The notes: generated by a model not told the origin, from the letters alone. Positions 34,955 through 48,550 are shown, counted from the first letter of the stretch. The stretch is DNA of 64,000 bases from Nitrospira sp. (GCA_024998565.1 JACOEM010000012.1:45403-109402); one strand, 5' to 3'. Numbers and translations: made by a program.

Positions 34955-35030
34955 GGCGCCGTACCCAAGTGGCTAAGGGAGCAGTCTGCAAAACTGCGAT
35001 GCGGCGGTTCGAACCCGCCCGGCGCCTCCA
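34955..35030 (+). tRNA. tRNA-Cys (GCA)
   Basis: Acceptor GGCGCCG/CGGCGCC, anticodon stem GCAGT/ACTGC with loop CTGCAAA, T arm GGTTCGAAC, discriminator T + CCA. Confidence 0.97.
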
Positions 35031-36175
35031 ATCATTCCTGCAGATATCTCAGAGGGTTCGGTGATTCTGACCGGACCCTGTTCCACCCGCTGATTTTCGT
35101 TACTCCCGGTTTTACTCCCGGTTCCACTCGCACTTTTCGACGCAATCGCTCCTAAACTCGCTCGATTTACCGCCGTTCGCAGATGGGCCGGGGAGAGATG
35201 GGCGTAGCGCATTGTCATCGTGATCGTGGAATGGCCCATCAGTTCCTGCACTGTCCTGATATCCACTCCTGCCATGACAGCCCGAGACGCGAAGGTATGC
35301 CGTAAGGTGTGCCAGGTGACATCTTCGATTTTAGCTCGCTTCAAGGCTGGCTCGTAGATCTTCACCACAAAGTTGCGCCCCTGCATCGGTTGTGCGGAGG
35401 TAAGAGGACTCGGGAACAGGAATGGGCTGTGCATCCACGAGGTGAGACCCTTGACGATGTCCAGCGCGGCATCCGTCAGAATGACGTGGCGGGTCTTGCC
35501 GGACTTACTCAATGGAATGGTCAAGATGCCCTGTTCGGTGTTCAGGCAGTCCCAGCGCGAATGAAACTGCTCGGTGAGGCGTAACCCTGTTTCGAGAGCG
35601 AAGGCCACAATCAACCAGTGCTCTGGAGGCAAGGTATCGCGCAGGCTGGAGATTTCTCTATCACTAAGGAACCGTAGTCGCCCGGCTGGTTCTGAAAAGA
35701 ACTTCACGCCTTTGACTGGATTGGCCGAAAGCAAACCATCGGCAATCGCCAAGTTCAGGATGCGTCGCAGGGCTCCAAAGTAGCGGTTAATCGTTCGGGC
35801 GGTTCGTGTGCCCTTGTGCTTCATTTTGGCTTGGATATGCCGTAAGTCGTCGGCGGTAATCTCGGTCAGAAGCTTCCGTCCTAGGAGCTTCGACCAGAAC
35901 TTTCCATAGCGATGCACATTCCGAAGACCTGGTGAAGTCACGCCTTCCAGATACCGCGCAATCCATGCCCGGAGGGTCAATTCCTTGGAGACGGCATACT
36001 TCTCGGGAAAGTAGCGATTTTCGCGAGCCTCGGACCGCAACCGACCGTACAGTGTCTTGGCTTGGCTCTTGGAGTCCGCCCGGAACCATTTCTCCCGGCC
36101 ATTCACATACAGGCGGACCCACCAACCGCCTTGCTTAAACACCACCCCACGGTCTTTACCGTTTCGCCTTGCCAT
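34973..36175 (-). CDS. int: Tyrosine recombinase/integrase
   Basis: N-terminal arm-binding-like domain, TGLRLTE (R), SKSGK (K), HTLRH, LMGHS, RYAH (Y); stop lies inside the tRNA. Confidence 0.95.
   Translation of the reverse strand: MARRNGKDRGVVFKQGGWWVRLYVNGREKWFRADSKSQAKTLYGRLRSEARENRYFPEKYAVSKELTLRAWIARYLEGVTSPGLRNVHRYGKFWSKLLGRKLLTEITADDLRHIQAKMKHKGTRTARTINRYFGALRRILNLAIADGLLSANPVKGVKFFSEPAGRLRFLSDREISSLRDTLPPEHWLIVAFALETGLRLTEQFHSRWDCLNTEQGILTIPLSKSGKTRHVILTDAALDIVKGLTSWMHSPFLFPSPLTSAQPMQGRNFVVKIYEPALKRAKIEDVTWHTLRHTFASRAVMAGVDIRTVQELMGHSTITMTMRYAHLSPAHLRTAVNRASLGAIASKSASGTGSKTGSNENQRVEQGPVRITEPSEISAGMIGGAGRVRTAASQFCRLLP
35100..35135 (+). repeat. 12-bp-period tandem repeats (TTACTCCCGGTT x2 plus a degenerate unit), probable integrase arm sites
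   Basis: Read directly; same motif occurs near the other att copies. Confidence 0.7.
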
Positions 36176-36872
36176 CGGGCTTTCCCTTTCGGTTTTTCAT
36201 GTCGGAATCCGCCGTTGTGCCAGTCCTACCTACTGAGGCTTTTTGTTTCTTCGGTAGATGTTTCTCTCGCCATTTACGAGTGGCCACTCGTGTCTGGCAC
36301 CGAGGACCGCAGTATGTTTGATCAAACCGAATCGCTAAGTAAATCCGTTGGCATTCTGGGCAACGGCGAATTCGCCCGGAATAGTCGACCAATAAATGGG
36401 CGAACCGATATTCAAACTCCTTCACTTTTCGCTTTGTGGCAACAAACACATTCCCTTTTCGTTCGTGGTCCGCGCCAGGCAGTGTGACAATGATGGTGAA
36501 TTGAGGGAACGTGAAGGCAGTCACTGCCTTTTCCCATAAGTTTTCCAGGCTGTGGAGGACCATGGTCTGAACCTCCTTGGCCTCTGCGCTGCTTGGAATA
36601 GTGCCACGAAACCTCTCTCCTGGGATAGATTGGACGCTCCACCCTCCTTCTGTCGCGATTTCCTCCCCATGGCGATTCGCGACGTCATCCACAAAGCTGG
36701 CCACCTCGAAAGCCAGGACCATCCATTCACTTGGCGTGAGAGCTTCTAGGTCGGTCTGGATAAACTTCAAGAGCCAGCCGACTTCGCCGTCTGCTGTGGT
36801 GAGAATCCGCTCTCTGGCCTTCTTCATCTCGCCGTAGAACTGCTCAAAAATTGCGGCACGGTCTATGGTCAT
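36156..36872 (-). CDS. Hypothetical protein with C-terminal CGNR-like zinc finger
   Basis: RRCPECQRIY...TYCGPRCQTRVATRKWR; GGAGAGG RBS; stop overlaps int start. Confidence 0.65.
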   Translation of the reverse strand: MTIDRAAIFEQFYGEMKKARERILTTADGEVGWLLKFIQTDLEALTPSEWMVLAFEVASFVDDVANRHGEEIATEGGWSVQSIPGERFRGTIPSSAEAKEVQTMVLHSLENLWEKAVTAFTFPQFTIIVTLPGADHERKGNVFVATKRKVKEFEYRFAHLLVDYSGRIRRCPECQRIYLAIRFDQTYCGPRCQTRVATRKWREKHLPKKQKASVGRTGTTADSDMKNRKGKPDGKAKR

Positions 36873-37015
36873 CTGACCTCTCCTTCTGTAGCTGGCTTCG
36901 GCAGCTTCATCACTCCACCCCATTTCATATGAAAAAACTGGAGGTGAACGAGGCACCTTGGGACTGAAAACTCTTGGGGAGTGTACCTCGTCAATGGTAA
37001 TGCATGTCAATGAGC

Positions 37016-37043
37016 GTTATGCCTAATAAGTATTAGGCATAAC
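37016..37043. promoter_or_regulatory. Perfect 13-bp inverted repeat (operator-like) between divergent genes
   Basis: GTTATGCCTAATA-AG-TATTAGGCATAAC. Confidence 0.65.
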
Positions 37044-37077
37044 AGAAATGATTCACTCATTACCAAGGAGGTGCCCG

Positions 37078-37287
37078 ATGGTCCCGAGTACAAAATTGAT
37101 CACCATTCGAGAAGCGGCAAATCGGTTAGGGCTCAAGGAAAGCACGATCAGGAAATACATCCTGAAACGGCAGATCGCCTATGTGAAGCCGTCGGTGCGC
37201 GCCGTACGGATTCCCATCGAAGAACTCGAACGGATTCTGTCTGCCGGCCTCAGACCTGCCATCCCTCAAGCGGAAGGTGCCCGATGA
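37078..37287 (+). CDS. Excisionase-like helix-turn-helix protein (HTH_17/MerR-like)
   Basis: LITIREAANRLGLKESTIRKYI...VRIP pattern; AAGGAGG RBS. Confidence 0.8.
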   Translation: MVPSTKLITIREAANRLGLKESTIRKYILKRQIAYVKPSVRAVRIPIEELERILSAGLRPAIPQAEGAR

Positions 37288-37997
37288 GCCGCTGGAAGGA
37301 GTTCCGGCGGGAGCCCGTCGCCGGGGAATGGACGCGAAAGCAGAAACGAGGCTATCACCGCGTCCGGTCGCTGCTTTGGTTCTGGGAATGCCACCAGTTC
37401 CAGGTGCTCTGGGTCACGCTCTCCACGGCAGAAGGCGGGGATGCGGAGAAGCTGACCTACCATCATAAACAACTGCGTCAGCGGATCGAACGCCAGCTCG
37501 GCTTTCAGGGGTTGGAGTATTACCAGGTCCGGACTGAGGAAGGGCATGGCGTCCTCCATATCTTCTGGGCCTGGCGGGTGCCGGACGGGGAGCGCGCCCG
37601 CCGCTTCTGGATCTCTCAGGAATGGCTTTCCTCCCAGTGGCAAGCCCTCCACGGGGCTCCGGTGGTCTGGATCAAGGCCTATCAGCCTAGCCATCGTTCA
37701 CGAAACCGTCTCAGCCGCTATGTCATCAGCCAGTACGTCCAGGATCAATGTGGCTACGTGAATATGTGTTGGTCCTGGAAGCGGTCGCTGGGCTTTCCCA
37801 TCAGCCGACTGTGGGAGGAGATGCGGCATCAATGGTCGACCAGGAATGCCTACCGACGGATCAGAGGCGAGATTGAAATCCCGAGGATCGTTTTCATCAA
37901 GACCTGGGAGGATCTGCTGTCAGGGCATCCCATTTGGTTTAGCGGCACCATTCTGCAACTCGTGCTGGGGAAGGGGCTTGTCTATCAGGAGGTGTGA
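37284..37997 (+). CDS. Putative rolling-circle Rep-like protein (atypical HUH motifs)
   Basis: WVTLST (motif I-like), EEGHGVLHIF (motif II-like), RYVISQY (motif III-like); ATGA overlap with xis stop. Confidence 0.5.
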   Translation: MSRWKEFRREPVAGEWTRKQKRGYHRVRSLLWFWECHQFQVLWVTLSTAEGGDAEKLTYHHKQLRQRIERQLGFQGLEYYQVRTEEGHGVLHIFWAWRVPDGERARRFWISQEWLSSQWQALHGAPVVWIKAYQPSHRSRNRLSRYVISQYVQDQCGYVNMCWSWKRSLGFPISRLWEEMRHQWSTRNAYRRIRGEIEIPRIVFIKTWEDLLSGHPIWFSGTILQLVLGKGLVYQEV

Positions 37998-37999
37998 GG

Positions 38000-38227
38000 A
38001 TGATCTGGCATCGATGCGATCTGAAGCTGCCGAGTCTATTTGGGCCGGCAGGTTGCAGACGGGAAGCCACCACGTATGATCGTGCGCGCAAAGCCTGTCT
38101 CTGTTCTGAGCATACGAAGGAACGGCTCTGCGAGTTTTGCCAATTTGAACGGGCGTGGGTGCGGTTTTGTTATAGGGAGCATGACGTCACATGCGAAATC
38201 TGGCTCTGTATCGACTGTGCGGGCTGA
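38000..38227 (+). CDS. Small Cys-rich hypothetical protein
   Basis: 75 aa with 10 Cys including CLC, CEFC, CIDC; AGGAGG RBS; abuts rep stop. Confidence 0.5.
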   Translation: MIWHRCDLKLPSLFGPAGCRREATTYDRARKACLCSEHTKERLCEFCQFERAWVRFCYREHDVTCEIWLCIDCAG

Positions 38228-38366
38228 CCACTCGTAGTCTCGATTCTTAAAATTCTCGGCTACCGCCACATGGAATATTCGCTCGATTAAACCAGGCCTT
38301 GGCATTGAAAGCGGACATTTCCTCAGCATGCCAGGATTTTTTCAGTTGGGTCTATAATCTATGGCT

Positions 38367-38394
38367 GTGATGAATTTGTGACGGACGCTATGCT
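38367..38394 (+). promoter_or_regulatory. OmpR-type direct repeat and -10-like hexamer upstream of response regulator
   Basis: GTGA at 38367 and 38378 (11-bp period), TATGCT at 38389. Confidence 0.5.
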
Positions 38395-38420
38395 AAAGGC
38401 ATTCCTGCTGCCTCGAATAT

Positions 38421-39149
38421 ATGGTTTTTATGGCTAAACAAATTCTTGTCGTAGAAGACGACTTAGATATTGGTCGGCTCTTGGAGATGCACCTGACCGA
38501 CACCGCATATGCCGTAGAGATCGCCAAAACCGGAGAGGATGGCCTTCAATGTGTGCTCTCGAAGAGATATGACCTTATTATTCTTGACGTGATGCTGCCT
38601 GGCATCGACGGGTTAGAGATATGTCGGCAGCTTCGATCGCTCCCCACCTATACACCCATCCTCATGTTGACTGCGAAATCCTCAGAAATAGACCGGGTCC
38701 TTGGGCTGGAAGTTGGTGCTGACGACTATGTTACTAAACCATTTAGTGTTCGAGAACTGCTCGCACGTGTAAAGGCCCTCTTCCGCCGTTCTGAAGCATT
38801 TAGAGATAAGACGCAGGACCTTCAGAAAACTATCCGCGCAAAGGGCCTCTTCATCGATGTTGAAAAACGGAAGGTCACAGTGAGAGGCAGCTTGAGGGAT
38901 CTCACGGCCAAAGAGTTCGATTTGCTCCTGCAGTTTGCATCCCATCCAGGCCGAGTTTATACGCGCAGTCAGCTTCTCGATTCGGTCTGGGGTTACGGTC
39001 ACGACGGCTATGAACACACGGTAAATTCCCATATCAACAGATTGCGCGCCAAGATTGAAAAGGATTCGGCCAAGCCCGACTTTATTCTGACTGTGTGGGG
39101 CGTCGGATACAAATTCTGTGAACTAGAAGGATCCGGCTTAAAGGACTGA
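38421..39149 (+). CDS. OmpR-family response regulator
   Basis: DLIILDVMLPG, LTAK, KPF, HTVNSHINRLRAKIE. Confidence 0.93.
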   Translation: MVFMAKQILVVEDDLDIGRLLEMHLTDTAYAVEIAKTGEDGLQCVLSKRYDLIILDVMLPGIDGLEICRQLRSLPTYTPILMLTAKSSEIDRVLGLEVGADDYVTKPFSVRELLARVKALFRRSEAFRDKTQDLQKTIRAKGLFIDVEKRKVTVRGSLRDLTAKEFDLLLQFASHPGRVYTRSQLLDSVWGYGHDGYEHTVNSHINRLRAKIEKDSAKPDFILTVWGVGYKFCELEGSGLKD

Positions 39150-39151
39150 CC

Positions 39152-40630
39152 ATGTCGCGGTCACTCTACGGCAAACTCGCCCTTGTGTTGCTCTTCCTGT
39201 TTTGTGCGGTTGGGGTTCTATACACTCTCCTAACGGTCTTCACGACGCGCATGTATCAGCAGGAAGTGAATCAGAAGCTGAACCGTGCTCTGGCCAGAAA
39301 CATTGTTGCTGACCAGTTACTAAGCAGCCAAGGAGAGGTGAGTCCGTACGCTCTGAAAGAACTGTTTCACCTACTTATGGTTATCAATCCGAGCATTGAG
39401 ATGTACTTGCTTGATGAGAATGGGGGCATAGTCAACTTCTCCGCTCCCACTGAGAAGGTCAAGCGCTCGGCTGTCTCGTTAGAACCAATACATCGTTTTC
39501 TCACCGAGGCGGACGCATTTCCTATTCTTGGTGACGATCCCCGTGATGCGACTCGCCAGAAGGTCTTTTCTGTTTCAGCCATACCCTTACACGGACAACC
39601 AACAGGATATCTGTACATTGTCCTTGGCGGAGAGGAGTATGACTCCGTCGCCGATATGCTGAATCGGAGCTACATCTTCCGGCTGAGTCTCTGGGCAGCA
39701 CTTACCGGCTTACTGTTCGCTCTTTTGGGCGGTCTCTTTCTATTCAACATGCTCACCAGAAGGTTAACCAAACTAGCATCGACGATGGAAACGTTCGCAA
39801 AGAGCGATTTTTCAGAGGCGCTCGAGCTGCATCCTCAGGATTTCATTCCTGAGCGGAATAGTGATGAAATTGATCGGCTCCGGTCCACATTCAATCGGAT
39901 GGTAGAACGAATTCTTCAGCAAGTGGCCACTTTGAAGCAGACGGACATCCTTCGGCGTGAGTTGGTGGCCAATGTGTCCCATGATTTGCGTACCCCCCTG
40001 GCATCCTTGCATGGGTATCTGGAAACGTTACTGATGAAAGAAGGGACGCTTACACGAGAGGAATACCGGACGTTTCTCGACATTGCCCTCAAGCAAAGCC
40101 AACGGCTTAGGGAGCTTGTGGGGGAACTCTTTGAATTGGCTCGCTTAGATTCGCGTGAAGCTCGCATTCAATGCGAACAATTTTCTTTAGCCGAGCTTGT
40201 CCAGGATGTGTGTCAAAAGTTTCAACTCACCGTCGCAAATAGGGGGATAGCCCTAAAGAGCAGTTTTACAGATGATCTGCCATTTGTGGAGGCTGATATC
40301 GGCCTCATCGAGCGGGCGCTAGAAAACATAATCAATAATGCTACTCGCTATACACCGAGCGGAGGGACCATTGCGATTTCGTTAAGCCACGAATCCGGCT
40401 CGGTTATGATACGAATTTCTGATACTGGCTGTGGTATCGCTGATCACGACTTGCCTTATATTTTTGATCGTTTTTATAGGGCGAATCGACAAAATCAGCC
40501 TGGAGGAGCTGGGCTCGGGCTGGCCATTACTAAGCGAATCCTAGAGCTACATGGAAGTACAATTCGAGCAGAGAGTATACCTAACATCGGAACCATCATC
40601 AGCTTTGAACTGCCCACCGTGCACTTCTAG
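39152..40630 (+). CDS. Sensor histidine kinase (periplasmic sensor-HAMP-HisKA-HATPase)
   Basis: Two TM helices, NVSHDLRTPL, ENIINNA, DTGCGI, GAGLGL. Confidence 0.93.
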   Translation: MSRSLYGKLALVLLFLFCAVGVLYTLLTVFTTRMYQQEVNQKLNRALARNIVADQLLSSQGEVSPYALKELFHLLMVINPSIEMYLLDENGGIVNFSAPTEKVKRSAVSLEPIHRFLTEADAFPILGDDPRDATRQKVFSVSAIPLHGQPTGYLYIVLGGEEYDSVADMLNRSYIFRLSLWAALTGLLFALLGGLFLFNMLTRRLTKLASTMETFAKSDFSEALELHPQDFIPERNSDEIDRLRSTFNRMVERILQQVATLKQTDILRRELVANVSHDLRTPLASLHGYLETLLMKEGTLTREEYRTFLDIALKQSQRLRELVGELFELARLDSREARIQCEQFSLAELVQDVCQKFQLTVANRGIALKSSFTDDLPFVEADIGLIERALENIINNATRYTPSGGTIAISLSHESGSVMIRISDTGCGIADHDLPYIFDRFYRANRQNQPGGAGLGLAITKRILELHGSTIRAESIPNIGTIISFELPTVHF

Positions 40631-40674
40631 TCTCTATTGTTCTCGACCGTTACGGGCCGCTCGCCACATCAGGC

Positions 40675-40728
40675 GTGATAAAAATGTGACAATTTCGTGA
40701 GATCGATGTGAAGGGGCAGGGCTATGCT
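40675..40728 (+). promoter_or_regulatory. Four GTGA direct repeats at 11-bp period upstream of cld
   Basis: GTGA at 40675, 40686, 40697, 40708; TATGCT at 40723. Confidence 0.6.
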
Positions 40729-40781
40729 TGACCATGCATTGGGTTGTACCAGCCCTTTTAACCGAAAAGGAGAACGGACTT

Positions 40782-41576
40782 ATGAAGAGAATCAGTCAGA
40801 TTTCGATGGTTGCGCTTCTATTATGCTTCCTTCCCATGTTGTCTGTAGTGAGTGAGGCGGCCATGGATCACGACAAGCTCTTAAAGGATCCTGGTGTCTA
40901 CGCAACGTTTGCTGTGTTCAAGATGGGGGAGCACTGGTGGCAGATGGATCATGAAGCGCGTGTCAAGGCGGCCTCCGAAATGAAAAAGGTGTTCGAAAAG
41001 CACGCCGATAAGTTAATAGTCGATACGCATTTGCTTCGTGGTCTGTCTGAGAGAGCTGATGTACTTGTCAGGATTCACTCGAAAGAGATGGTTCATAATC
41101 AGAACTTCTTGTTAGACCTCATGGGGACCACTATGGGGATGGATATGAAAAATACTGACACCTTCAATGGCATCACCAAAACCCTAAATTATGTCCCTAG
41201 CTTCCCAGAAGAACTGAAGGGGGAGTTGAAGACACCGCCACCTCAGGGCAGCCCATACGTTATAGTGGTTCCTATACGCAAGGACGCAGAATGGTGGATT
41301 TCTGGACAAGACACCCGAACAGGCCTGATGAAGGAACACACGGATGCGACGGTCGCATACTTGAAGACGGTGAAACGGAAGCTCTATCACTCCAGCGGGT
41401 TGGATGATTGGGATTTTATTACCTACTTTGAAACATCCAAGCTGGATGATTTCAACAATCTTGTGACTGGATTGCTCAAGGTCAAGGAGAACCGTCATAA
41501 TAGGCGTTTCGGTGATCCTCTCCTGTTGGGGACCATTCGACCATTGGATGAAATCCTCGATATTCTCAGTCGCTAG
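40782..41576 (+). CDS. cld: Chlorite dismutase (long/clade 1 type, exported)
   Basis: Signal peptide; PIRKDAEWW, proximal EHT, distal Arg in KTVKRKLYHS, DFITYFET, KVKENRHNRRFG, matching the recalled Nitrospira defluvii Cld layout; 264 aa. Confidence 0.88.
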   Translation: MKRISQISMVALLLCFLPMLSVVSEAAMDHDKLLKDPGVYATFAVFKMGEHWWQMDHEARVKAASEMKKVFEKHADKLIVDTHLLRGLSERADVLVRIHSKEMVHNQNFLLDLMGTTMGMDMKNTDTFNGITKTLNYVPSFPEELKGELKTPPPQGSPYVIVVPIRKDAEWWISGQDTRTGLMKEHTDATVAYLKTVKRKLYHSSGLDDWDFITYFETSKLDDFNNLVTGLLKVKENRHNRRFGDPLLLGTIRPLDEILDILSR

Positions 41577-41605
41577 TCTATTTCGCTCGCGCGTTCCAGA
41601 ACACG

Positions 41606-41636
41606 GTGACCACCTGGGAACAGGTGGTCACTTCTA
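41606..41636 (+). terminator. Hairpin after cld
   Basis: GTGACCACCTG-GGAA-CAGGTGGTCAC perfect 11-bp stem. Confidence 0.6.
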
Positions 41637-41695
41637 TGCTGGTACTCACAAATCTTTACTTCTAATACTTAGTTATAGGCTCTATATCCGCCCCA

Positions 41696-41972
41696 CCCTG
41701 TCACCACCTGTTGGCTTCTCAGGGGGTGAGAGGGAGGAAATGCAGGGTTATTTTCAAGTGGTGACGGCGATGCGCTAGCTTGGCCGTCCCCTTGGTGAAT
41801 TAGTGGCCATGCAGAGTTGAGATGAAGACTTTGTCTGCCCAGGATTATCAACTAGACGCGAAATATGCTGACCACGAAGGCCCGCCGGCCGCTCCGGACT
41901 GCCGGGGCCGGACGGCCGGGGGGCTCGGGGGCGCAGCCCCCGCTTCACTTGATCTATATGGTCAAAGTAGGA
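41696..41972 (+). repeat. Origin-like module copy A (hairpins + 95-bp repeat)
   Basis: Homologous to 43920-44194; 95-bp core 41878-41972 matches copy B at 84/95, last 48 bp identical. Confidence 0.8.
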
Positions 41973-42173
41973 CGACCCTTCCTTTGGGTTCTCAGGCGGA
42001 AGCCTAACTTTTGGGCGGGAGGATTCAGTTTCAAGGAAGCGCTCGCCGATTGCCTAAAGATTTTGCGCGAGCCTCTGAGGAACCTCGAAATGTCGATCTA
42101 ATGAGGTTATATTTCGATAATCTTTAATGCAGAGGGGTGCCGGAAAGGCAAAGGCTGAACGAAAAAAGGATCC

Positions 42174-43403
42174 ATGAGAATTAAACTAAAAAAAGGGACG
42201 CCTCAGTGGTTCAAGTGGAAACTTAGTTTCTTAGGTGAGCCCGCTCCGATTAATCCGATGGCACTGTTTGCTGGAAACATGTGGAGTTACTTCGATCCTG
42301 GATCTCCAAATGAAAGATATGAAAATTTCATACGGAACGGCCGGCATCCTCTATCGACCTTTTTGGATAGCATGCTTCTGTATGACAAGGTTATTGTCCC
42401 AACTCATGACTTCATGTCGGTTGTTATTTTGATAAGTGTTTTTGGAGAAGATGGCGTTGCAGAGCTGATTGAAAATAATGCAGTTAGTTTTGTACGTGTG
42501 AAAGGGGCACTTGCGTACATAGGGAACGGGGGTGGCCTTGCATCATACGACATTCTTCACGACCAAACTCGCCCTGTAGATCAATTTGCGGATGATGATT
42601 CAACCTTGGAGTGGGCCCTGAATGGGCTCAGTACGAAGCCGAGAAGGGTGAACTTAAGTAGGATGATCCTTGAGAACACCCAAACATTCCCGATGGAGAA
42701 GATGGTTTCTCTGATCCGCGAGGAGTCCTACAAGGATATTTTAGATGGCCCATATTTAAGGACTGCTTTTAGCCTCAGGAATACCAGTCTTGATCATTTG
42801 TTTGGTGTTGAGCCCAATCAATTTAGGTGTGGGGAAATTCAGACTTTCGAAGAGCGAGATGAAATTGATTCCGTTCTTAGAATCGCCCGCGCCAATCTAG
42901 AAATGTTGCTTGCATTACAGACTGGTTGCACGGATACAGCTACTGGAACGCCTGTTGGTCACGTATTGAAGGCGAAACAGCAGCGAGGCAGTGCTAGATC
43001 TAGTCCTTTTGAGAGATTTGGATCCCTGAAAGAAATTACAGAAGTTCCCGATATCGCGAGTTATGTAATAGATGCTTCGATTCCAGATAGACCAGCACGC
43101 CTGCATGACATTTTGATTAAGCGAGGGACTAGAGATGCTGTTCAATTTAGAGCGTGGTTTCATGAAAAGTGTCGTGACAGTCCTCACGTAATTGCCAAGG
43201 AATACGGGAGATTAATGCATGATATTCCATTTGTTTCGACTCACAAAGGCAAGACTTTGCGTCTTTTGGCTACGACAATGGCGGGAGTGTATGACCCCGC
43301 TCTGGGCTTGGTAACCTCCATCGCAGACAGCTTTCTTGTAGATCTTGTGCGGAAACGAAACCCGAAGTATTTTATTGAGGATCTACGGCAAATTAATAAT
43401 TAA
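42174..43403 (+). CDS. Hypothetical protein (AT-rich cargo; start uncertain)
   Basis: 409-aa ORF, no recognisable motif, AT-richer than core genes. Confidence 0.7.
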   Translation: MRIKLKKGTPQWFKWKLSFLGEPAPINPMALFAGNMWSYFDPGSPNERYENFIRNGRHPLSTFLDSMLLYDKVIVPTHDFMSVVILISVFGEDGVAELIENNAVSFVRVKGALAYIGNGGGLASYDILHDQTRPVDQFADDDSTLEWALNGLSTKPRRVNLSRMILENTQTFPMEKMVSLIREESYKDILDGPYLRTAFSLRNTSLDHLFGVEPNQFRCGEIQTFEERDEIDSVLRIARANLEMLLALQTGCTDTATGTPVGHVLKAKQQRGSARSSPFERFGSLKEITEVPDIASYVIDASIPDRPARLHDILIKRGTRDAVQFRAWFHEKCRDSPHVIAKEYGRLMHDIPFVSTHKGKTLRLLATTMAGVYDPALGLVTSIADSFLVDLVRKRNPKYFIEDLRQINN

Positions 43404-43479
43404 TTAGTATGTTGGTTTTGACGGGCAGTGTTATTGGGAACTGATTCGCTTCCCACCAATCTACGGCAACGTACAAACC

Positions 43480-43527
43480 CTGATCCCGGTTTTAGTCCCG
43501 GTTCCACTCCCGATTTTGCTCCCGGTT
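43480..43527 (+). repeat. Four tandem 12-bp units (xxxxTCCCGGTT), probable arm sites at the right end of element 1
   Basis: CTGATCCCGGTT TTAGTCCCGGTT CCACTCCCGATT TTGCTCCCGGTT. Confidence 0.75.
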
Positions 43528-43646
43528 GGGAGTCCTCTTTAGTCGTAAATGGGCACCAATAAAATGTCGTAACACCTTGTTATTTAATGGCCTTACTCTC
43601 TGTCTGTCGCTGTTGATCTTCATGGGTCGTAGAGCCCTCGGGCAAG

Positions 43647-43691
43647 CTGCAAAACTGCGATGCGGCGGTTCGAACCCGCCCGGCGCCTCCA
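43647..43691 (+). repeat. att copy 2: 45-bp duplicate of tRNA-Cys 3' half
   Basis: Identical to 34986-35030; starts exactly at the first base of the anticodon loop. Confidence 0.95.
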
Positions 43692-43919
43692 TACCCTGCT
43701 TGCTCGATCCGGATCCCTTACGATTGTTCTTGGCGACGGAATAAGCACCTCCCTGGCATTCCGGGTAATTTTTCCTGACTAGGCCCCGCCCCTCGTCATT
43801 CCCCTTGCTCCCGGTTTTACTCCCGGTGCGGTTCAGACTTTCACGGCGATCCCTTTCAACCGGCTCTATTGCACGGGACTCACGTGATGGCGATAAGGCT
43901 GAGCCGAGCTGATCAATTT

Positions 43920-44194
43920 CTCCCTGTCACCAGTCTTTTATCCGTGACGAGTGACAGGGAGCTATACCCCTTCCTCATGCCAGGCGGCGAAGCGTCAGCT
44001 TGGCCGTCGGTCTGTTCCATCGTTCGCGACAAACAATGAAAGAAGAAACCGAAGTTGAGACCATCGGAATGCTTACGAGTGCGGACGTTCCGCCCAACGA
44101 GGCCCGCCGGCCGCTTCGGGTCCTGCGGACCGGACGGCCGAGGGGATCGGGGGCGCAGCCCCCGCTTCACTTGATCTATATGGTCAAAGTAGGA
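43920..44194 (+). repeat. Origin-like module copy B
   Basis: 11-bp IR CTCCCTGTCAC/GTGACAGGGAG, 23-mer GGCGAAGCGTCAGCTTGGCCGTC, 95-bp core 44100-44194. Confidence 0.8.
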
Positions 44195-44263
44195 TGGCCG
44201 AATTGCCGAAAAAGTGAGCTTGAAGTAGTATCGTTTAACACTTCGCTTGAGCGAAATTCTCCA

Positions 44264-44608
44264 ATGGACATTACCGGTGCAAGCCCAGGAAGATTTGAAT
44301 TAGGAATACGGCTATTCCTTGAGGGGCAGGCTGTTCTCTACAACGAGGTCGTTTTTTGGAAAGATGGGGACAAAGCCTTGCATGTGAATAGCTACTCCGA
44401 CTGGAACTGCGAAAATACGACTCCTGACATGGCACGACAAAAAATTGAGAGGTCTAAGGCAGTCTTAGAAGAACTTTCCGAGAAGAGCAATGAATTCTCG
44501 GAAGTAGCTAATCGGTTGCCGCATGCACACTATTTTTGTCATGACTGTGGAAACGCGGGCATAGTTTTAGCCAAAGAATTAAACGGTGAGTTCACCTGGC
44601 TGTGCTAG
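44264..44608 (+). CDS. Small hypothetical protein (immunity-protein-like size and composition)
   Basis: 114 aa from MDITGASP; the upstream part of the tracked ORF runs through the origin repeat and is probably non-coding. Confidence 0.55.
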   Translation: MDITGASPGRFELGIRLFLEGQAVLYNEVVFWKDGDKALHVNSYSDWNCENTTPDMARQKIERSKAVLEELSEKSNEFSEVANRLPHAHYFCHDCGNAGIVLAKELNGEFTWLC

Positions 44609-45020
44609 AGCCATGCAATTATATCCTAGGCTTCTTGGACAAAGATCTTAGGCTGATCTCAGCAGTTCAAATTTCAGCGTCCGACACGGATACAGTCCGT
44701 TGAGCAATTTGGACGCCATACATACTTTTTCATTCTTCGAGGGCTAACGCTCGAAGCCTTGGTCACCACAGCAGGAATAGGTTTAAACGGTATCCTTAGA
44801 CGCGTAAACCTCCTGTCGCAACCATAGATCTCTTACCTGAGCACAGCATTCCGGTAGCGGCGAAAACTACGCCCCCTACGTCTGCGGGCTTTTGAATAAA
44901 GAATTCCGCAGATACCATCCAATCTTTGCCATTGCTGGTTCAAGTTGTGACGGGTTCTTCTTTCCACTAAGCACTCTGCCACCGCTAGTGACATGTGCCT
45001 TAACCAGAGGGAGAAATGGT

Positions 45021-45536
45021 GTGAACAACGAATTTGTTCAGGTCTGTGTTGACGATGGCACCATCGCAGCCGGAGATCCGTGGGAAGTCATGGAGCCGGT
45101 TTTGTGGTCAGCTAATATCTATGATGGGCCAGAGCAATACGAAATAAGTCTGTCAGGATTTTCGATTCCCCAGCGCCTTGTCTACGCCTTGATGTGGTAC
45201 CGCATTGAAGTCAACAATGGCGGCCACGATCAATTCTATTTCAACTCAACTGGAATAGTGTGGAAGGACGCCTTGAACGCGTTCGAGGCGCTGGAGCTCC
45301 CCGAGTTCGCCAATATCCTCAGAGGGTCGACGGAACGGCTGGGTGGATCGCCTTCGCTTGATCGTCAGGCGCGTAACGAACAGTTAGAATCGATTGAGCC
45401 AGACTTCGACGATCTAGACGAGGCGTTTTACGAGGCCGAGAAAAGAATGGACCTTGATCATCGGATCATGAGTTTCATACGTGCACGACCTTCAGCTTTT
45501 TATTTTGTTGGAGAAGTTAGGAAACCTGCGGACTGA
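45021..45536 (+). CDS. DMP19/DUF4375-family protein
   Basis: EVNNGGHDQFYFNSTG signature, very acidic (FDDLDEAFYE); GTG start behind GAGGGAG. Confidence 0.75.
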   Translation: MNNEFVQVCVDDGTIAAGDPWEVMEPVLWSANIYDGPEQYEISLSGFSIPQRLVYALMWYRIEVNNGGHDQFYFNSTGIVWKDALNAFEALELPEFANILRGSTERLGGSPSLDRQARNEQLESIEPDFDDLDEAFYEAEKRMDLDHRIMSFIRARPSAFYFVGEVRKPAD

Positions 45537-45739
45537 GGCGGTTCAGACCGTTTGTACCCTTGAAGATACATTACATTTGAGATGCTCGGCAATTGAGGAC
45601 AGCCTGCAGTAGGCATGGTTAGGCCTTGGTTAGCTGGAATATGTAGCCTCGGTGATCGGTTAGATAGGCCTGCCGGAGACAACCGCCCCTCCTACATCAC
45701 ATTGTATTGATTGCAACAGCTCTGACCTCGTGAGGGTAT

Positions 45740-46159
45740 ATGCCCTGGTGTATATCATTCCAAATCTATGGTGAAGAATTTCATCCTAGTCGGGTTCCGT
45801 TCCAATTCACTAAGCAACACGACCCTGGCATTATCGGACGCAGAGGACGTTACCGCGGGCGACCAGTTCTCTATGGGTCTGCATCCTATGAAGTTCCTTC
45901 TTCAATTCCAAATATTGACAGGATCAGGCATGTGGTTGAAACCTTTGAGCCTCTATTGGGCGATATTCGCGCTGCAGGTGCTACAGAGTGGCATATTGAT
46001 ATCTGTCGTTATTTCAACGCCCAGTGCAATGAAGCTTATTCACTCGACGATTTGCTATTGATCGCTCGGCTTCAGTGTGGATTCTGGTATTCAGCCTACA
46101 GTGTCTCGAAGAAAGAAGAGAAGAGATTGCAACGGGAATTGGGAGGATTTCGGCCATGA
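45740..46159 (+). CDS. Small hypothetical protein, weakly DUF4279-like
   Basis: FQIYGEEFHP...G pattern; GAGGG RBS; family call tentative. Confidence 0.5.
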   Translation: MPWCISFQIYGEEFHPSRVPFQFTKQHDPGIIGRRGRYRGRPVLYGSASYEVPSSIPNIDRIRHVVETFEPLLGDIRAAGATEWHIDICRYFNAQCNEAYSLDDLLLIARLQCGFWYSAYSVSKKEEKRLQRELGGFRP

Positions 46160-46538
46160 GTTACCCGTTGCCGAAAAGGTAATAAGCGAAGCCCCATTCG
46201 TGGCCTCCCGCTGGGCTCACTAGAAACATGAGTTCCATTGAGATTGAAGGCTCCGATGCTGGCCTGACTCAGCGGCACTAAGCGGATGCTGAATGATAGG
46301 AAATACTTCTAGACATTTGAACCGGTGGCGTCCGATTCGGAGACAGGCCGTTGAGGTGTTCTGCCTTTCGAAACAGTTACGTCGGCGTACAAACCCTGGT
46401 CCCGGTTTTGCTCGCGGTTGGGAATCCGCTTCGGTGGCAAATGGGCACAAGGAAAAGTTGTTAAGCTATTACGCTTCTTGATTATTCTTTTCTGTCGATC
46501 GCTGTTGATCATCATCTGTCTTACGGCCATCGGGCAAG

Positions 46539-46550
46539 CTGCAAAACTGC
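46539..46550 (+). repeat. att copy 3 (5' part only: CTGCAAAACTGC)
   Basis: Preceded by CGGGCAAG as at copy 2; homology to the tRNA stops after ACTGC. Confidence 0.75.
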
Positions 46551-46731
46551 ACTGTAGGAAAATAAAACGGGGGAACCTTCGCCATACACACCGCTAGTAG
46601 CCGACACCCGCCGAACATGCAATGCGTGCGTCCTTATCAAACAGTCCTTTAGCATTTTACTTATCGCGGCAACCAGCGTTGGTTCATGCTAGTCTGCAGC
46701 ATAGCAGACGACCTTCTACCTGAGAGGACTC

Positions 46732-48477
46732 ATGGCCCCTGAACCTATTTTTTTTCGAGATCTCGCGTATGTCTTTATCGCTGCGGTCCTAGGCGGGGCC
46801 TCCGCCTATCTGCTTCGTCAACCGTTGATTCTGGGCTATGTCTTCGGCGGCATTCTGATCGGCCCCTTTACCCCTGGTCCCTCTATTTCGGATGTCCATA
46901 GTTTCGAATTGTTCGCCGAGATTGGCGTGATCCTCTTGATGTTCTGCATCGGGATCGAATTTTCCTTAAATGATTTGTTACGAGTTCGGTGGGTCGCCCT
47001 GCTGGGAGGGCCACTCGGCATTTTCCTCTCCATTCTCCTCGCTGTCGGTCTGAGCCATGTTGTGGGATGGAGTTGGATTCAAAGCGTGGTGATCGGGTCG
47101 GTGGTGTCCGTGGCGAGCACGATGGTTCTGGCGCGCTTGCTGCTGGACAGTGGAGATTTGCGTGCCAAGCATGGCCGGGTGATGATCGGGATCACACTCG
47201 TGGAAGATCTGGCGGTGGTTGTGCTCACCGTCCTGCTTCCGGCGCTCGGTGCTCTGGAACCAGGCCGCTTTGCCACGATTGGAAAGGCCTTGTGGCTCGC
47301 GGTCCTCATCCTGGTTCCCTTCGCCTATCTCGCGGCGAAAGCCATTCCTCCGTTGTTGACACGCATTGCGAAGACACAAAATGCCGAACTCTTTCTGCTG
47401 GTAGCGTTGTCTATAGGAATCGGCACGGCAGCCGTCACACAGATGGCGGGGTTGTCCCTGGCGCTCGGCGCGTTTCTGGCAGGATTGATCATCAGCGGCT
47501 CAGAATATGGTCACGAAACCTTAGCCCGCCTCCTGTCGCTCCGTGACGCTTTCGTGGCTCTGTTTTTTGTGACGATCGGTGTCCTCATCGATCCGCGCGT
47601 GGTGTGGGCCAATCTCCCGTTGCTCGGCCTCATGCTCGGATTGATTATCGTGGGGAAATTCGTCATTTGGACGCTGGTCGTGAGGCTGTTTCGTTATGCT
47701 TGGGGCACCGCCCTGCTCGTGGGCGTCGGTCTCACGCAGATTGGCGAATTTTCTTTCGTGTTGGTTCAGGTCGCTAAAACGGCGGGACATGTGAGCGAGG
47801 ATGTGTATAATGCCACCCTGGCCGCTTCGCTGCTGAGCATTCTCCTCAACGCGCCCCTCGTTCGGTATGCGCCTGGGTGGATCGCTGCATTACATTTTAA
47901 AATGGGACGAGTGTCCTTGCCCATTCAAGGCGGGATTTCTGACGAGCAAGCCGGGCATGTGGTGCTGTGTGGGTTCGGTCGCATGGGCAGTGCGGTGGGA
48001 CTCGCCCTCGATCATTTTGAGCTTCCGTACACCGTGATTGAGCGCGACCCGGACATCGTTCGACAGTTGCGCCGACGCGGAATTTCCTGCGTCTACGGGG
48101 ATGCCTCGCAAACTGAGCTGTTGAAAGCGGCCGGTGCCCAACATGCGGCGTTGGTGATCGTGGCGCTTCCGGTCATTCACGAGACGTCGCTTACCGTTCG
48201 ACGATTTCGGGGGCTGAACGAAAAAATTCCCCTTCTCGCCCGAGCGCATGGCTTTAGGGAGGCTGAGGACCTGAAGGAGGTGGGAGCGACGGAAGTTATC
48301 CTGCCCGAGGTCGAGGGGGCACATACCTTGATCCGACACGCCTTCCAGGCCTTGAAGGTCTCGAAGTCGAGCATCCTCGATTATCTTAAGTCCTGCCAAG
48401 CGTTTCGATCGTCCGGTGAGGGACCTGATTCAGGGAACGTGGAGGCCGGGAAGGCTGGCGCTGGGCGAAGTACGTGA
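46732..48477 (+). CDS. CPA2 cation:proton antiporter with TrkA-N/KTN domain (Kef/YbaL-like)
   Basis: IGVILLMFCIG, SVASTMV, EDLAVV, GAFLAG, QIGEFSFV, CGFGRMG, YGDAS. Confidence 0.9.
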   Translation: MAPEPIFFRDLAYVFIAAVLGGASAYLLRQPLILGYVFGGILIGPFTPGPSISDVHSFELFAEIGVILLMFCIGIEFSLNDLLRVRWVALLGGPLGIFLSILLAVGLSHVVGWSWIQSVVIGSVVSVASTMVLARLLLDSGDLRAKHGRVMIGITLVEDLAVVVLTVLLPALGALEPGRFATIGKALWLAVLILVPFAYLAAKAIPPLLTRIAKTQNAELFLLVALSIGIGTAAVTQMAGLSLALGAFLAGLIISGSEYGHETLARLLSLRDAFVALFFVTIGVLIDPRVVWANLPLLGLMLGLIIVGKFVIWTLVVRLFRYAWGTALLVGVGLTQIGEFSFVLVQVAKTAGHVSEDVYNATLAASLLSILLNAPLVRYAPGWIAALHFKMGRVSLPIQGGISDEQAGHVVLCGFGRMGSAVGLALDHFELPYTVIERDPDIVRQLRRRGISCVYGDASQTELLKAAGAQHAALVIVALPVIHETSLTVRRFRGLNEKIPLLARAHGFREAEDLKEVGATEVILPEVEGAHTLIRHAFQALKVSKSSILDYLKSCQAFRSSGEGPDSGNVEAGKAGAGRST

Positions 48478-48512
48478 ATGTCTGAATTAACTGCGGCGTC
48501 ATCCAATCTCTT

Positions 48513-48550
48513 ACTGCGATGCCGCGGTTCGAACCCGCCCGGCGCTTCCA
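48513..48550 (+). repeat. att copy 4 (3' part, 2 mismatches to tRNA-Cys)
   Basis: ACTGCGATGCCGCGGTTCGAACCCGCCCGGCGCTTCCA, 36/38 identical to 34993-35030. Confidence 0.85.

Follow-up and report, generated by a model that had tools for sequence, protein, structure and literature searches.

A chlorite dismutase cassette with an OrhKR-type two-component system on tRNA-targeting islands suggests a transferable, inducible defense against chlorine oxidants in Nitrospira

INTRODUCTION

The presence of chlorite dismutase (Cld) in Nitrospira, the horizontal transfer of its gene (cld), and the statistical association of cld with transfer RNA (tRNA) genes, integrases, histidine kinases, and OmpR-type regulators are already known (Barnum & Coates 2022, PMC9751292). 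Here, we analyzed a three-gene cassette, encoding a response regulator (RR), a histidine kinase (HK), and Cld, in a 64,000-nucleotide stretch of DNA from a nitrite-oxidizing wastewater Nitrospira sp. (GCA_024998565.1 JACOEM010000012.1:45403-109402; hereafter the window, with positions counted from its first letter). On balance, we consider it probable that an OrhKR-family oxidant alarm has been rewired to a periplasmic Cld, in a 3.2-kb module that hops among tRNA-targeting Nitrospira islands.

The closest described regulatory system is OrhK/OrhR (c3564/c3565) of uropathogenic Escherichia coli (UPEC) CFT073, which responds to hydrogen peroxide (H2O2) and tert-butyl hydroperoxide and has an msrQP-like operon and a methionine (Met)-rich peptide as its directly activated targets (PMC8550376). 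The two-component system (TCS) of the window resembles OrhK/OrhR in sequence, including the periplasmic sensor and a nearly identical RR recognition helix, in its location next to a periplasmic antioxidant effector on a tRNA-adjacent island of horizontal origin, and in its GTGA boxes, with TGTGA-type half-sites present in the OrhR target promoter. It differs in its output (Cld versus the msrQP-like operon, Met-rich peptide, and hemolysin of the Orh system), in its direct repeats with an 11-bp period versus the inverted repeats drawn for the promoter Pc3566, in its host, a nitrifier, and in that its signal is a predicted one. In the HprSR-MsrPQ system of E. coli, chlorite oxidizes periplasmic Met and activates the circuit, which also answers hypochlorous acid (HOCl) (PMC9805139). 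A periplasm-facing HK and an OmpR-type RR induce a periplasmic defense against chlorine oxidants there, the arrangement predicted here, and the Met redox switch proposed for HprS has a possible counterpart in a near-invariant methionine (M76) of the window sensor. The two sensor domains, however, have no sequence similarity and the kinase core alone aligns (25% identity), making the window TCS an analog and not a member of that system.

The enzyme itself is comparable to NdCld of Ca. Nitrospira defluvii (3NN1), with which it shares the clade 1 fold and length, a predicted signal peptide, and all catalytic and heme-environment residues; unlike NdCld, it is encoded on a low-GC mobile island, apparently under a dedicated TCS, and falls in another Nitrospira Cld branch. 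Horizontal movement of cld is also a property of the perchlorate reduction island and of chlorate composite transposons. In contrast to these, the window cassette carries neither pcr/clr reductase genes nor flanking insertion sequence (IS) elements, its regulator is neither PcrRS nor SigF/NrsF, and it would serve an aerobic nitrifier as an independent detoxification unit. The cassette is neither a perchlorate/chlorate respiration element nor HprSR. What is new is the specific island, evidence for its very recent interspecies spread, the OrhKR-type identity of the TCS, a predicted operator, and a family-wide link to periplasmic Met-sulfoxide repair.

RESULTS

The cassette encodes a clade 1-type Cld behind a TCS

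Open reading frame (ORF) calls combined with Pfam searches revealed three plus-strand genes between positions 38421 and 41631 in the order RR-HK-cld, separated by 2 nt (RR/HK) and 151 nt (HK/cld), with the cassette proper spanning 3.2 kb (38365-41632). An earlier note on this DNA had described the same three genes in one orientation, ending in a strong hairpin and unaccompanied by (per)chlorate reductase genes, and our calls agree on each count: the hairpin 3' of cld has a 12-bp stem with a folding energy of -30.5 kcal/mol (z = -4.7), and no molybdopterin oxidoreductase was found among the ten largest real ORFs of the window. Because the hairpin has no U-tract, an intrinsic-terminator scan made no call there; it is a possible terminator or RNA stabilizer. 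For cld, translation most likely starts at ATG 40782, with AAGGAG a short distance ahead of it (40767-40772).

The Cld matches PF06778 (E = 1.5e-31) as a full-length domain of about 240 aa in the mature form, and its closest solved structure is NdCld (E = 6e-81), to which it aligns over NdCld residues 3-238. Analysis of this alignment indicated that NdCld residues K141, W145, W146, H160, R173, and E210 are all retained, bearing out the proximal His, distal Arg, and Lys/Glu/Trp-Trp residues that the earlier note had listed for clade 1. The proximal His160 and distal Arg173 lie in EHTDA and VKRKLYH (NdCld, EHTQA and VKRKLYH), while K141, W145, W146, and E210 of the proximal hydrogen-bond network lie in IRKDAEWW and VKENRHN (NdCld, IKKDAEWW and VKEFRHN). 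A hydrophobic N-terminus, MKRISQISMVALLLCFLPMLSVVSEAA, which ends in SEAA, is located ahead of the alignment start of mature NdCld. It fits a signal peptide for periplasmic export, as also proposed before, with the prediction coming from a reading of the sequence. The protein is very likely a functional chlorite dismutase.

The closest non-identical relatives of this Cld are 78-83% identical, and they belong to a Nitrospira branch different from that of NdCld. In a search with NdCld, no protein of the Nitrospira sp. UBC2 chromosome (4,229,538 bp) was among the best 120 matches listed. The patterns of our genome scan were unable to match NdCld-type sequences, which places second, NdCld-type "core" cld copies outside that scan. 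The clade 2 cld of enterobacterial plasmids was considered as a member of the same system and rejected because it sits among a cupin gene and IS26 with no TCS.

The TCS is of the OrhK/OrhR type and its relatives adjoin Met-sulfoxide repair genes

Comparison with the CFT073 proteins revealed that the HK aligns with OrhK over its full length (aa 2-488, 35% identity, E = 9e-102), with the common motifs LMxxNPSxExY, GDDPR, KVFS, and GYLYIxL, and that the RR and OrhR have 50% identity (E = 3e-86), their recognition helices being nearly the same (TVNSHINRLRAKIE versus TVNTHINRLRAKIE). By these alignments, the window TCS is a full-length OrhK/OrhR homolog. Both proteins scored below every equivalog cut-off in NCBIfam; the best full-length HK model, TIGR01386 (heavy-metal sensor), was sub-threshold, and the RR reached 161 bits against the HprR model, below the cut-off of 353. 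In the alignment of the sensor family, M76 is almost invariant and is also found in OrhK, and neither a Cys nor a His is conserved there, nor is an obvious anion-binding site visible. Modeled with AF2 (pLDDT 75), the sensor forms a single PDC/PAS-like domain, for which Foldseek returned generic PDC/Cache, WalK, and CusS-like structures (TM 0.3-0.5), so that these matches point to no particular ligand. The earlier suggestion that the sensor detects chlorine oxidants as HprS does therefore divides into two parts: oxidant sensing agrees with the OrhKR homology and with the partner genes described below, whereas homology to HprS was rejected on the kinase-core-only alignment.

The N-terminal 213 residues of the HK have homologs at about 50% identity in other phyla. 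Four of six relatives examined adjoin MsrAB, MsrPQ, or Met-rich proteins, and the remaining two have no Msr or Met-rich partner beside the sensor gene. In Marinobacter and Ca. Vondammii, a signal-peptide protein with 21-22% Met is followed by RR-HK and then by a periplasmic MsrA-MsrB fusion; in a third relative, msrAB is divergent from RR-HK, and the fourth has the order RR-HK-msrQ-msrP-msrA-msrB. A metagenome scan for the sensor yielded 80 more loci, 45 of them with enough flank to be informative, and MsrAB, MsrPQ, and/or a Met-rich protein was present in 22 of the 45 and cld in none. Phased GTGA arrays also occur in these metagenome relatives, typically right after the HK stop codon or ahead of the msr genes. 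Among plasmid relatives, the sensor lies beside msrQP-like genes in E. coli and beside msrB-dipZ-msrA in Burkholderia, and it was the E. coli arrangement that led us to UPEC OrhK/OrhR.

Several of the related loci are of interest in their own right. Small secreted proteins with 16-31% Met are encoded beside an OrhKR-like TCS and MsrAB/MsrPQ in Marinobacter, Ca. Vondammii, and several metagenome contigs (L091 4948-8776, L092 4880-8706, L104, L117, L125, and L147), an arrangement resembling the MrpX hypochlorite "sponge" module. On the conjugative IncF plasmid p666 of E. coli ETEC H10407 (L184, 3071-7053), an orhKR-like TCS, msrQP-like genes, and a small ORF are found a few kilobases from the heat-stable enterotoxin gene sta1, and the sensor matched 54 Escherichia plasmid records. 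Two related chromosomal loci (L096 7612-8547 and L030 9983-10768) have RR-HK and downstream radical-SAM and DUF547 genes in common; after the HK, one locus has cld and the other an ECF-type sigma factor gene.

The main rival to a chlorine signal keeps the wiring and changes the trigger: the HK would register oxidative stress of the periplasm or envelope in general (H2O2, organic peroxides) and not chlorine oxyanions specifically, with Cld as one among several exchangeable outputs of an unspecific oxidant alarm. The peroxide responses of OrhKR are in line with this, and so are the absence of Cys/His and of an anion site from the sensor alignment and the nature of the usual family partners, since Msr enzymes repair damage from any Met-oxidizing agent. 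Cld, however, is essentially a single-substrate enzyme acting on chlorite (PMC9751292), so that its wiring to a chlorite-blind sensor would be of little use. Chlorite's oxidation of periplasmic Met and its triggering of the HprSR circuit also speak against a purely peroxide-type alarm, and modules of Met-rich peptide and Msr are a documented hypochlorite defense, in which hypochlorite is scavenged by Met-rich MrpX acting with a methionine sulfoxide reductase (PMC4436054). We regard the generic signal as rather unlikely; for a chlorine oxidant as the natural signal, the case as we read it from these comparisons is evenly poised.

Shared GTGA boxes connect cld to the TCS

A genome scan with the Cld alignment identified 80 Nitrospira-type cld loci, which constitutes the survey of cld neighborhoods that the earlier note had proposed. 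The RR-HK-cld synteny was found in 8 of the 80, on several mobile backbones, with Cld identities ranging from 100% down to 60%, and the divergence of RR and HK keeps pace with that of Cld across the eight loci. In the window, the motif GTGA-N7-GTGA occurs seven times against an expectation of 1.9, with four of the seven within the cassette. The boxes upstream of cld form three overlapping pairs (40675-40711) with an exact 11-bp period, and both this array and the one upstream of the RR gene are followed by GCTATGCT, a -10-like TAnnnT. The RR-side boxes are retained in L013, L015, L048, L051, and L061, and the homology block of L013 begins at 38365. The cld-side arrays keep their position in all eight TCS-cld loci despite a diverged spacer, whereas, among the 72 cld loci lacking the TCS, of which about 70 had usable upstream sequence, at least one GTGA pair was present in 3 of 70 (Fisher p = 7e-9 versus TCS-cld loci). 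The regions upstream of the RR gene and cld yielded no sigma-70 -35/-10 pair, which fits activator-dependent promoters of the PhoB type.

Sequences of cld occur in many metatranscriptome runs, so that cld is transcribed. The public RNA data consist of assembled contigs only; in one run, a cld-only contig starts at 40692, and in another, the depth is higher from 40709 onward.

The conserved synteny and the same GTGA boxes in both promoters lend good support to the control of cld by the TCS, which the earlier note had described as inducible by its own TCS, and from this comparative evidence we consider it likely that the RR controls cld, presumably as an activator. The alternative is that the TCS and cld are mere neighboring passengers, with cld constitutive or controlled elsewhere and the TCS regulating itself or distant genes. 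The association is indeed missing from 72 of the 80 loci, one island (L020) has the same backbone and cld with no TCS, and the regulation is one predicted from comparison; yet the trio enters unrelated backbones as one homology block, the same boxes precede the RR gene and cld over the whole range of 60-100% Cld identity and are nearly absent from TCS-free loci, and the region upstream of cld offers no sigma-70-like -35/-10 pair. Independent passengers appear improbable, and we retain the predicted control of cld by the RR.

The cassette has spread recently between Nitrospira species

Cld is 100% identical at the same ispG-tRNA-Cys site in two other species representatives, namely L011, a metagenome-assembled genome (MAG) labeled N. 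defluvii NOB1, and L012, the closed 4.2-Mb chromosome of Nitrospira sp. UBC2 (CP092081). Comparison of these loci with the window revealed a stepwise identity of 74-86% in the chromosomal flank, 88-93% in the island backbone, and 99-100% in RR-HK-cld, and the same steps separate L011 from L012. In public sequencing data, at least 20 runs, drawn from at least 14 studies, contained 100% of the sampled 31-mers of the cassette; the samples were activated sludge, wastewater, sludge, bioreactor, freshwater, and one of drinking water. Activated sludge and wastewater predominate, and the specific relevance to chlorinated water proposed in the earlier note is a tentative one. The majority of metagenome contigs match the window up to 41973 and then continue into either of two cargo genes that are unrelated to each other.

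More distant cassettes, 60-86% identical, each form a discrete block. The homology of L013 to the window is confined to 38365-41581, and the cassette is the only segment common to L013 and L015. At least four mobile backbones carry the module, characterized by a tyrosine integrase at tRNA-Cys, serine recombinases at tRNA-Asn, a serine recombinase with DnaB, and a tyrosine integrase with Rep_trans at tRNA-Arg. The proposal of a self-contained mobile cargo thus stands on the tRNA-Cys island with its direct repeats, the identity gap between the cassette (99-100%) and the flanks (74-88%) of the species compared, and the discrete block shared across backbones, and the mobility of the cassette is nearly certain. 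Its passage from one Nitrospira species to another most likely occurs through movement or recombination among islands that target tRNA genes. Vertical inheritance at this locus, which the earlier note had named as a finding that would speak against mobility, is countered by the identity gradient: an old tRNA-Cys locus whose near-identity stems from cross-contamination of co-occurring Nitrospira MAGs during assembly or binning would suit the common ispG-tRNA-Cys site of all three related genomes and the MAG-type records (L011 and L012 were both listed as MAGs), but is very improbable given that L012 is a closed chromosome, that identity changes stepwise inside single contigs, that many independent contigs hold the cassette with two alternative downstream cargoes, and that related cassettes occur in other backbones at other tRNAs.

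Apart from this cassette, a 10.2-kb island extending from tRNA-Lys carries another Nitrospira cld with no TCS (L025 1102-11320 and L028 1102-11320; also L024, L026, and L027). Two species representatives, with flanks that cannot be aligned to each other, carry this island at 99.96% identity. It would therefore seem that mobile cld islands are common among Nitrospira.

Anatomy of the island at tRNA-Cys

The coordinates of the features are collected in Table 1. A tyrosine integrase lies beside the tRNA, and the 50-nt tRNA end recurs at the far border, which sets the bounds of an 8.7-kb tRNA-targeting island at 35031-43691. Behind it, a truncated attachment (att) copy ending at 46550 and a third copy at 48521-48550 (2 mismatches) indicate that two small elements are stacked. 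The first of these (43692 to ~46553) encodes DMP19 and small ORFs, and the second (~46554-48550) a Kef-type K+/H+ antiporter; 43840-46512 is missing from L003 and 43697 to ~49600 from L011, which resumes chromosomal sequence past the right attachment repeat. The GC content drops from ~0.59 to ~0.50 across 38-47 kb. No relaxase or type IV secretion system genes were found among the island ORFs, and ORF and Pfam calls revealed no transposase in the island.

Table 1. Features of the tRNA-Cys island and the RR-HK-cld cassette in the window
Feature	Position	Strand	Remarks
tRNA-Cys(GCA)	34955-35030	+	ARAGORN; Rfam tRNA, 60.5 bits
Tyrosine integrase	34973-36175	-	PF00589, E = 9e-30; phrog_1 integrase, E = 2e-67; 3' end overlaps tRNA
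Left attachment repeat	34981-35030	+	3' 50 nt of tRNA-Cys; repeat family D6
284-aa backbone ORF	36156-37010	-	No family match; 84-90% conserved in L011 and L012
HTH_17 excisionase-like DNA-binding protein	37048-37287	+	PF12728, E = 1e-8; phrog_66 excisionase/regulator
237-aa backbone ORF ("Rep-like" in the earlier note)	37284-37997	+	No family or structural match
Cys-rich 77-aa backbone ORF	37994-38227	+	Beside the 237-aa ORF in L011, L012, L015, and L020
Putative RR operator/promoter of the TCS	38367-38394	+	GTGA boxes at 38367 and 38378 (11 bp apart); -10-like TATGCT at 38389-38394
RR	38421-39149 (likelier start ATG 38430)	+	OmpR/PhoB type; Response_reg and Trans_reg_C (Pfam)
HK	39152-40630	+	Two transmembrane (TM) segments, HAMP, HisKA, HATPase_c (Pfam)
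HK sensor domain	~aa 35-175, between TM1 and TM2		Periplasmic, PDC/PAS-like; near-invariant M76; motifs NPSxExYLLD, GDDPR, GYLY
Putative RR operator/promoter of cld	40675-40728	+	GTGA boxes at 40675, 40686, 40697, and 40708; -10-like TATGCT at 40723-40728
cld	40782-41576 (ORF open from 40728)	+	264-aa precursor; Chlor_dismutase, PF06778
Hairpin 3' of cld	41605-41632	+	12-bp stem, GGTGACCACCTG-GGAA-CAGGTGGTCACT
GC-rich junction element	41765-41977, core 41908-41973	+	Repeats D2, D10, and D12; second copy at 43985-44199
Variable cargo ORF, 409 aa	42174-43403	+	No family match
Right attachment repeat	43642-43691	+	48/50 nt identical to tRNA 3' end; final 30 nt exact
Two downstream tandem insertions (same tRNA)	43692-48550	+	DMP19 and small ORFs in the first; Kef-type antiporter in the second

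The label "Rep-like" for the 237-aa ORF found no confirmation, with zero matches in Pfam, NCBIfam, PHROG, PADLOC, and PDB sequence and profile searches and no similarity to the Rep_trans protein of L061; nor did any analysis applied support the "origin" that the earlier note had placed beside the cassette. The 237-aa protein belongs to a family of 492 representatives (E <= 1e-3) with invariant TxEGxGVLH and SRYxxxQY motifs, which by these searches is an uncharacterized, island-associated family with no Pfam or PDB relative. At the tRNA-Asn of L020 (8890-10942), homologs of the 237-aa and 77-aa ORFs are followed by cld and a junction element, with RR-HK absent; this island is a TCS-less version of the window island.

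At the position of the 409-aa cargo ORF, other copies of the island carry an unrelated 427-aa membrane protein, and defense-system models returned zero matches on the variable cargo ORFs. An Rfam scan of 34-48 kb (E <= 1) matched the tRNA and nothing else, which means that the GC-rich repeat (41765-41977) does not correspond to a known RNA. Homology to the window breaks at 41973 in L001, L002, L004, L005, and L007-L010, and the 99-100% identical block terminates on its right where this junction element ends. In public contigs, its depth is three to seven times that of cld, with branching at 41970-41980 into at least nine continuations, and it lies upstream of variable cargo, that is, the 409-aa ORF, the 427-aa ORF, or a 114-aa ORF with DMP19. 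The element is present in L015, L020, and L025 as well, and looks like a recombination junction for cargo exchange.

DISCUSSION

In the mechanism that we propose, the OrhK-family HK, with its one periplasmic PDC-like domain, would detect an oxidant or oxidative damage in the periplasm. Chlorite, together with reactive chlorine species arising from it, would be the most likely signal, perceived possibly via the conserved M76, for which a Met redox switch is put forward as a hypothesis only. The HK would then phosphorylate the OrhR-type RR, and the phosphorylated RR would bind head-to-tail on the 11-bp-phased GTGA direct repeats overlapping the -35 region of two promoters that have no -35 element. 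The two boxes before the TCS operon would provide autoregulation, and the four before cld would switch cld on. The signal-peptide-bearing clade 1 Cld would convert ClO2- into Cl- and O2 in the periplasm, the compartment where the nitrite oxidoreductase of Nitrospira would produce chlorite from chlorate.

Several observations weigh against this mechanism. With respect to regulation, the binding of the RR to the boxes and the passage of the signal to the HK are links predicted from sequence only. The fourth GTGA box sits in the -35/-10 spacer, which is unusual for a pure activator, and the OrhR sites of E. coli are drawn as inverted, not direct, repeats (PMC8550376). Most RNA contigs span RR-HK-cld at even depth, which could be DNA carry-over or read-through, making a separate cld promoter and its start site tentative, and the X36 contig begins within the box array and would also suit a -10 element at GATAAAAAT; the predicted start is ~40735 with TATGCT as the -10 element and ~40692 with GATAAAAAT. 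As for the signal, OrhKR is the sole characterized family member, and the accessible part of its report describes tests with H2O2 and tert-butyl hydroperoxide and mentions none with chlorite or HOCl (PMC8550376). With respect to mobility, no empty tRNA-Cys site was found in the three related genomes, and in a rough neighbor-joining tree, the TCS-linked Clds fall in four separate places, the TCS-cld association therefore being patchy.

A broader possibility, which we offer tentatively, is that OrhK-type kinases are widespread and unrecognized periplasmic sensors of chlorine oxidants (chlorite, HOCl, chloramine), acting via oxidation of the conserved M76 and interchangeably attached to MsrAB, MsrPQ, Met-rich "sponge" peptides, or Cld. 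In this case, the cassette would be a transferable, inducible chlorite-resistance determinant now spreading among nitrite oxidizers in engineered water systems, and the control or diagnosis of nitrification with chlorite or chlorate could be blunted.

Chlorate and chlorite serve as selective inhibitors of nitrite oxidizers, and chlorite is applied to suppress nitrification in chloraminated distribution systems. Since the cassette is nearly identical in differing Nitrospira species, it looks like a transferable, inducible defense against chlorine oxidants, and such a self-regulated cld cassette moving between Nitrospira species of sludge and drinking water would amount to mobile resistance to chlorite and chlorate. 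With three genes, two promoters, and a predicted operator, it also provides a small test system for what OrhK-family sensors detect, and a regulator so far known only from a uropathogen island is now tied to chlorine-oxidant defense across several phyla.

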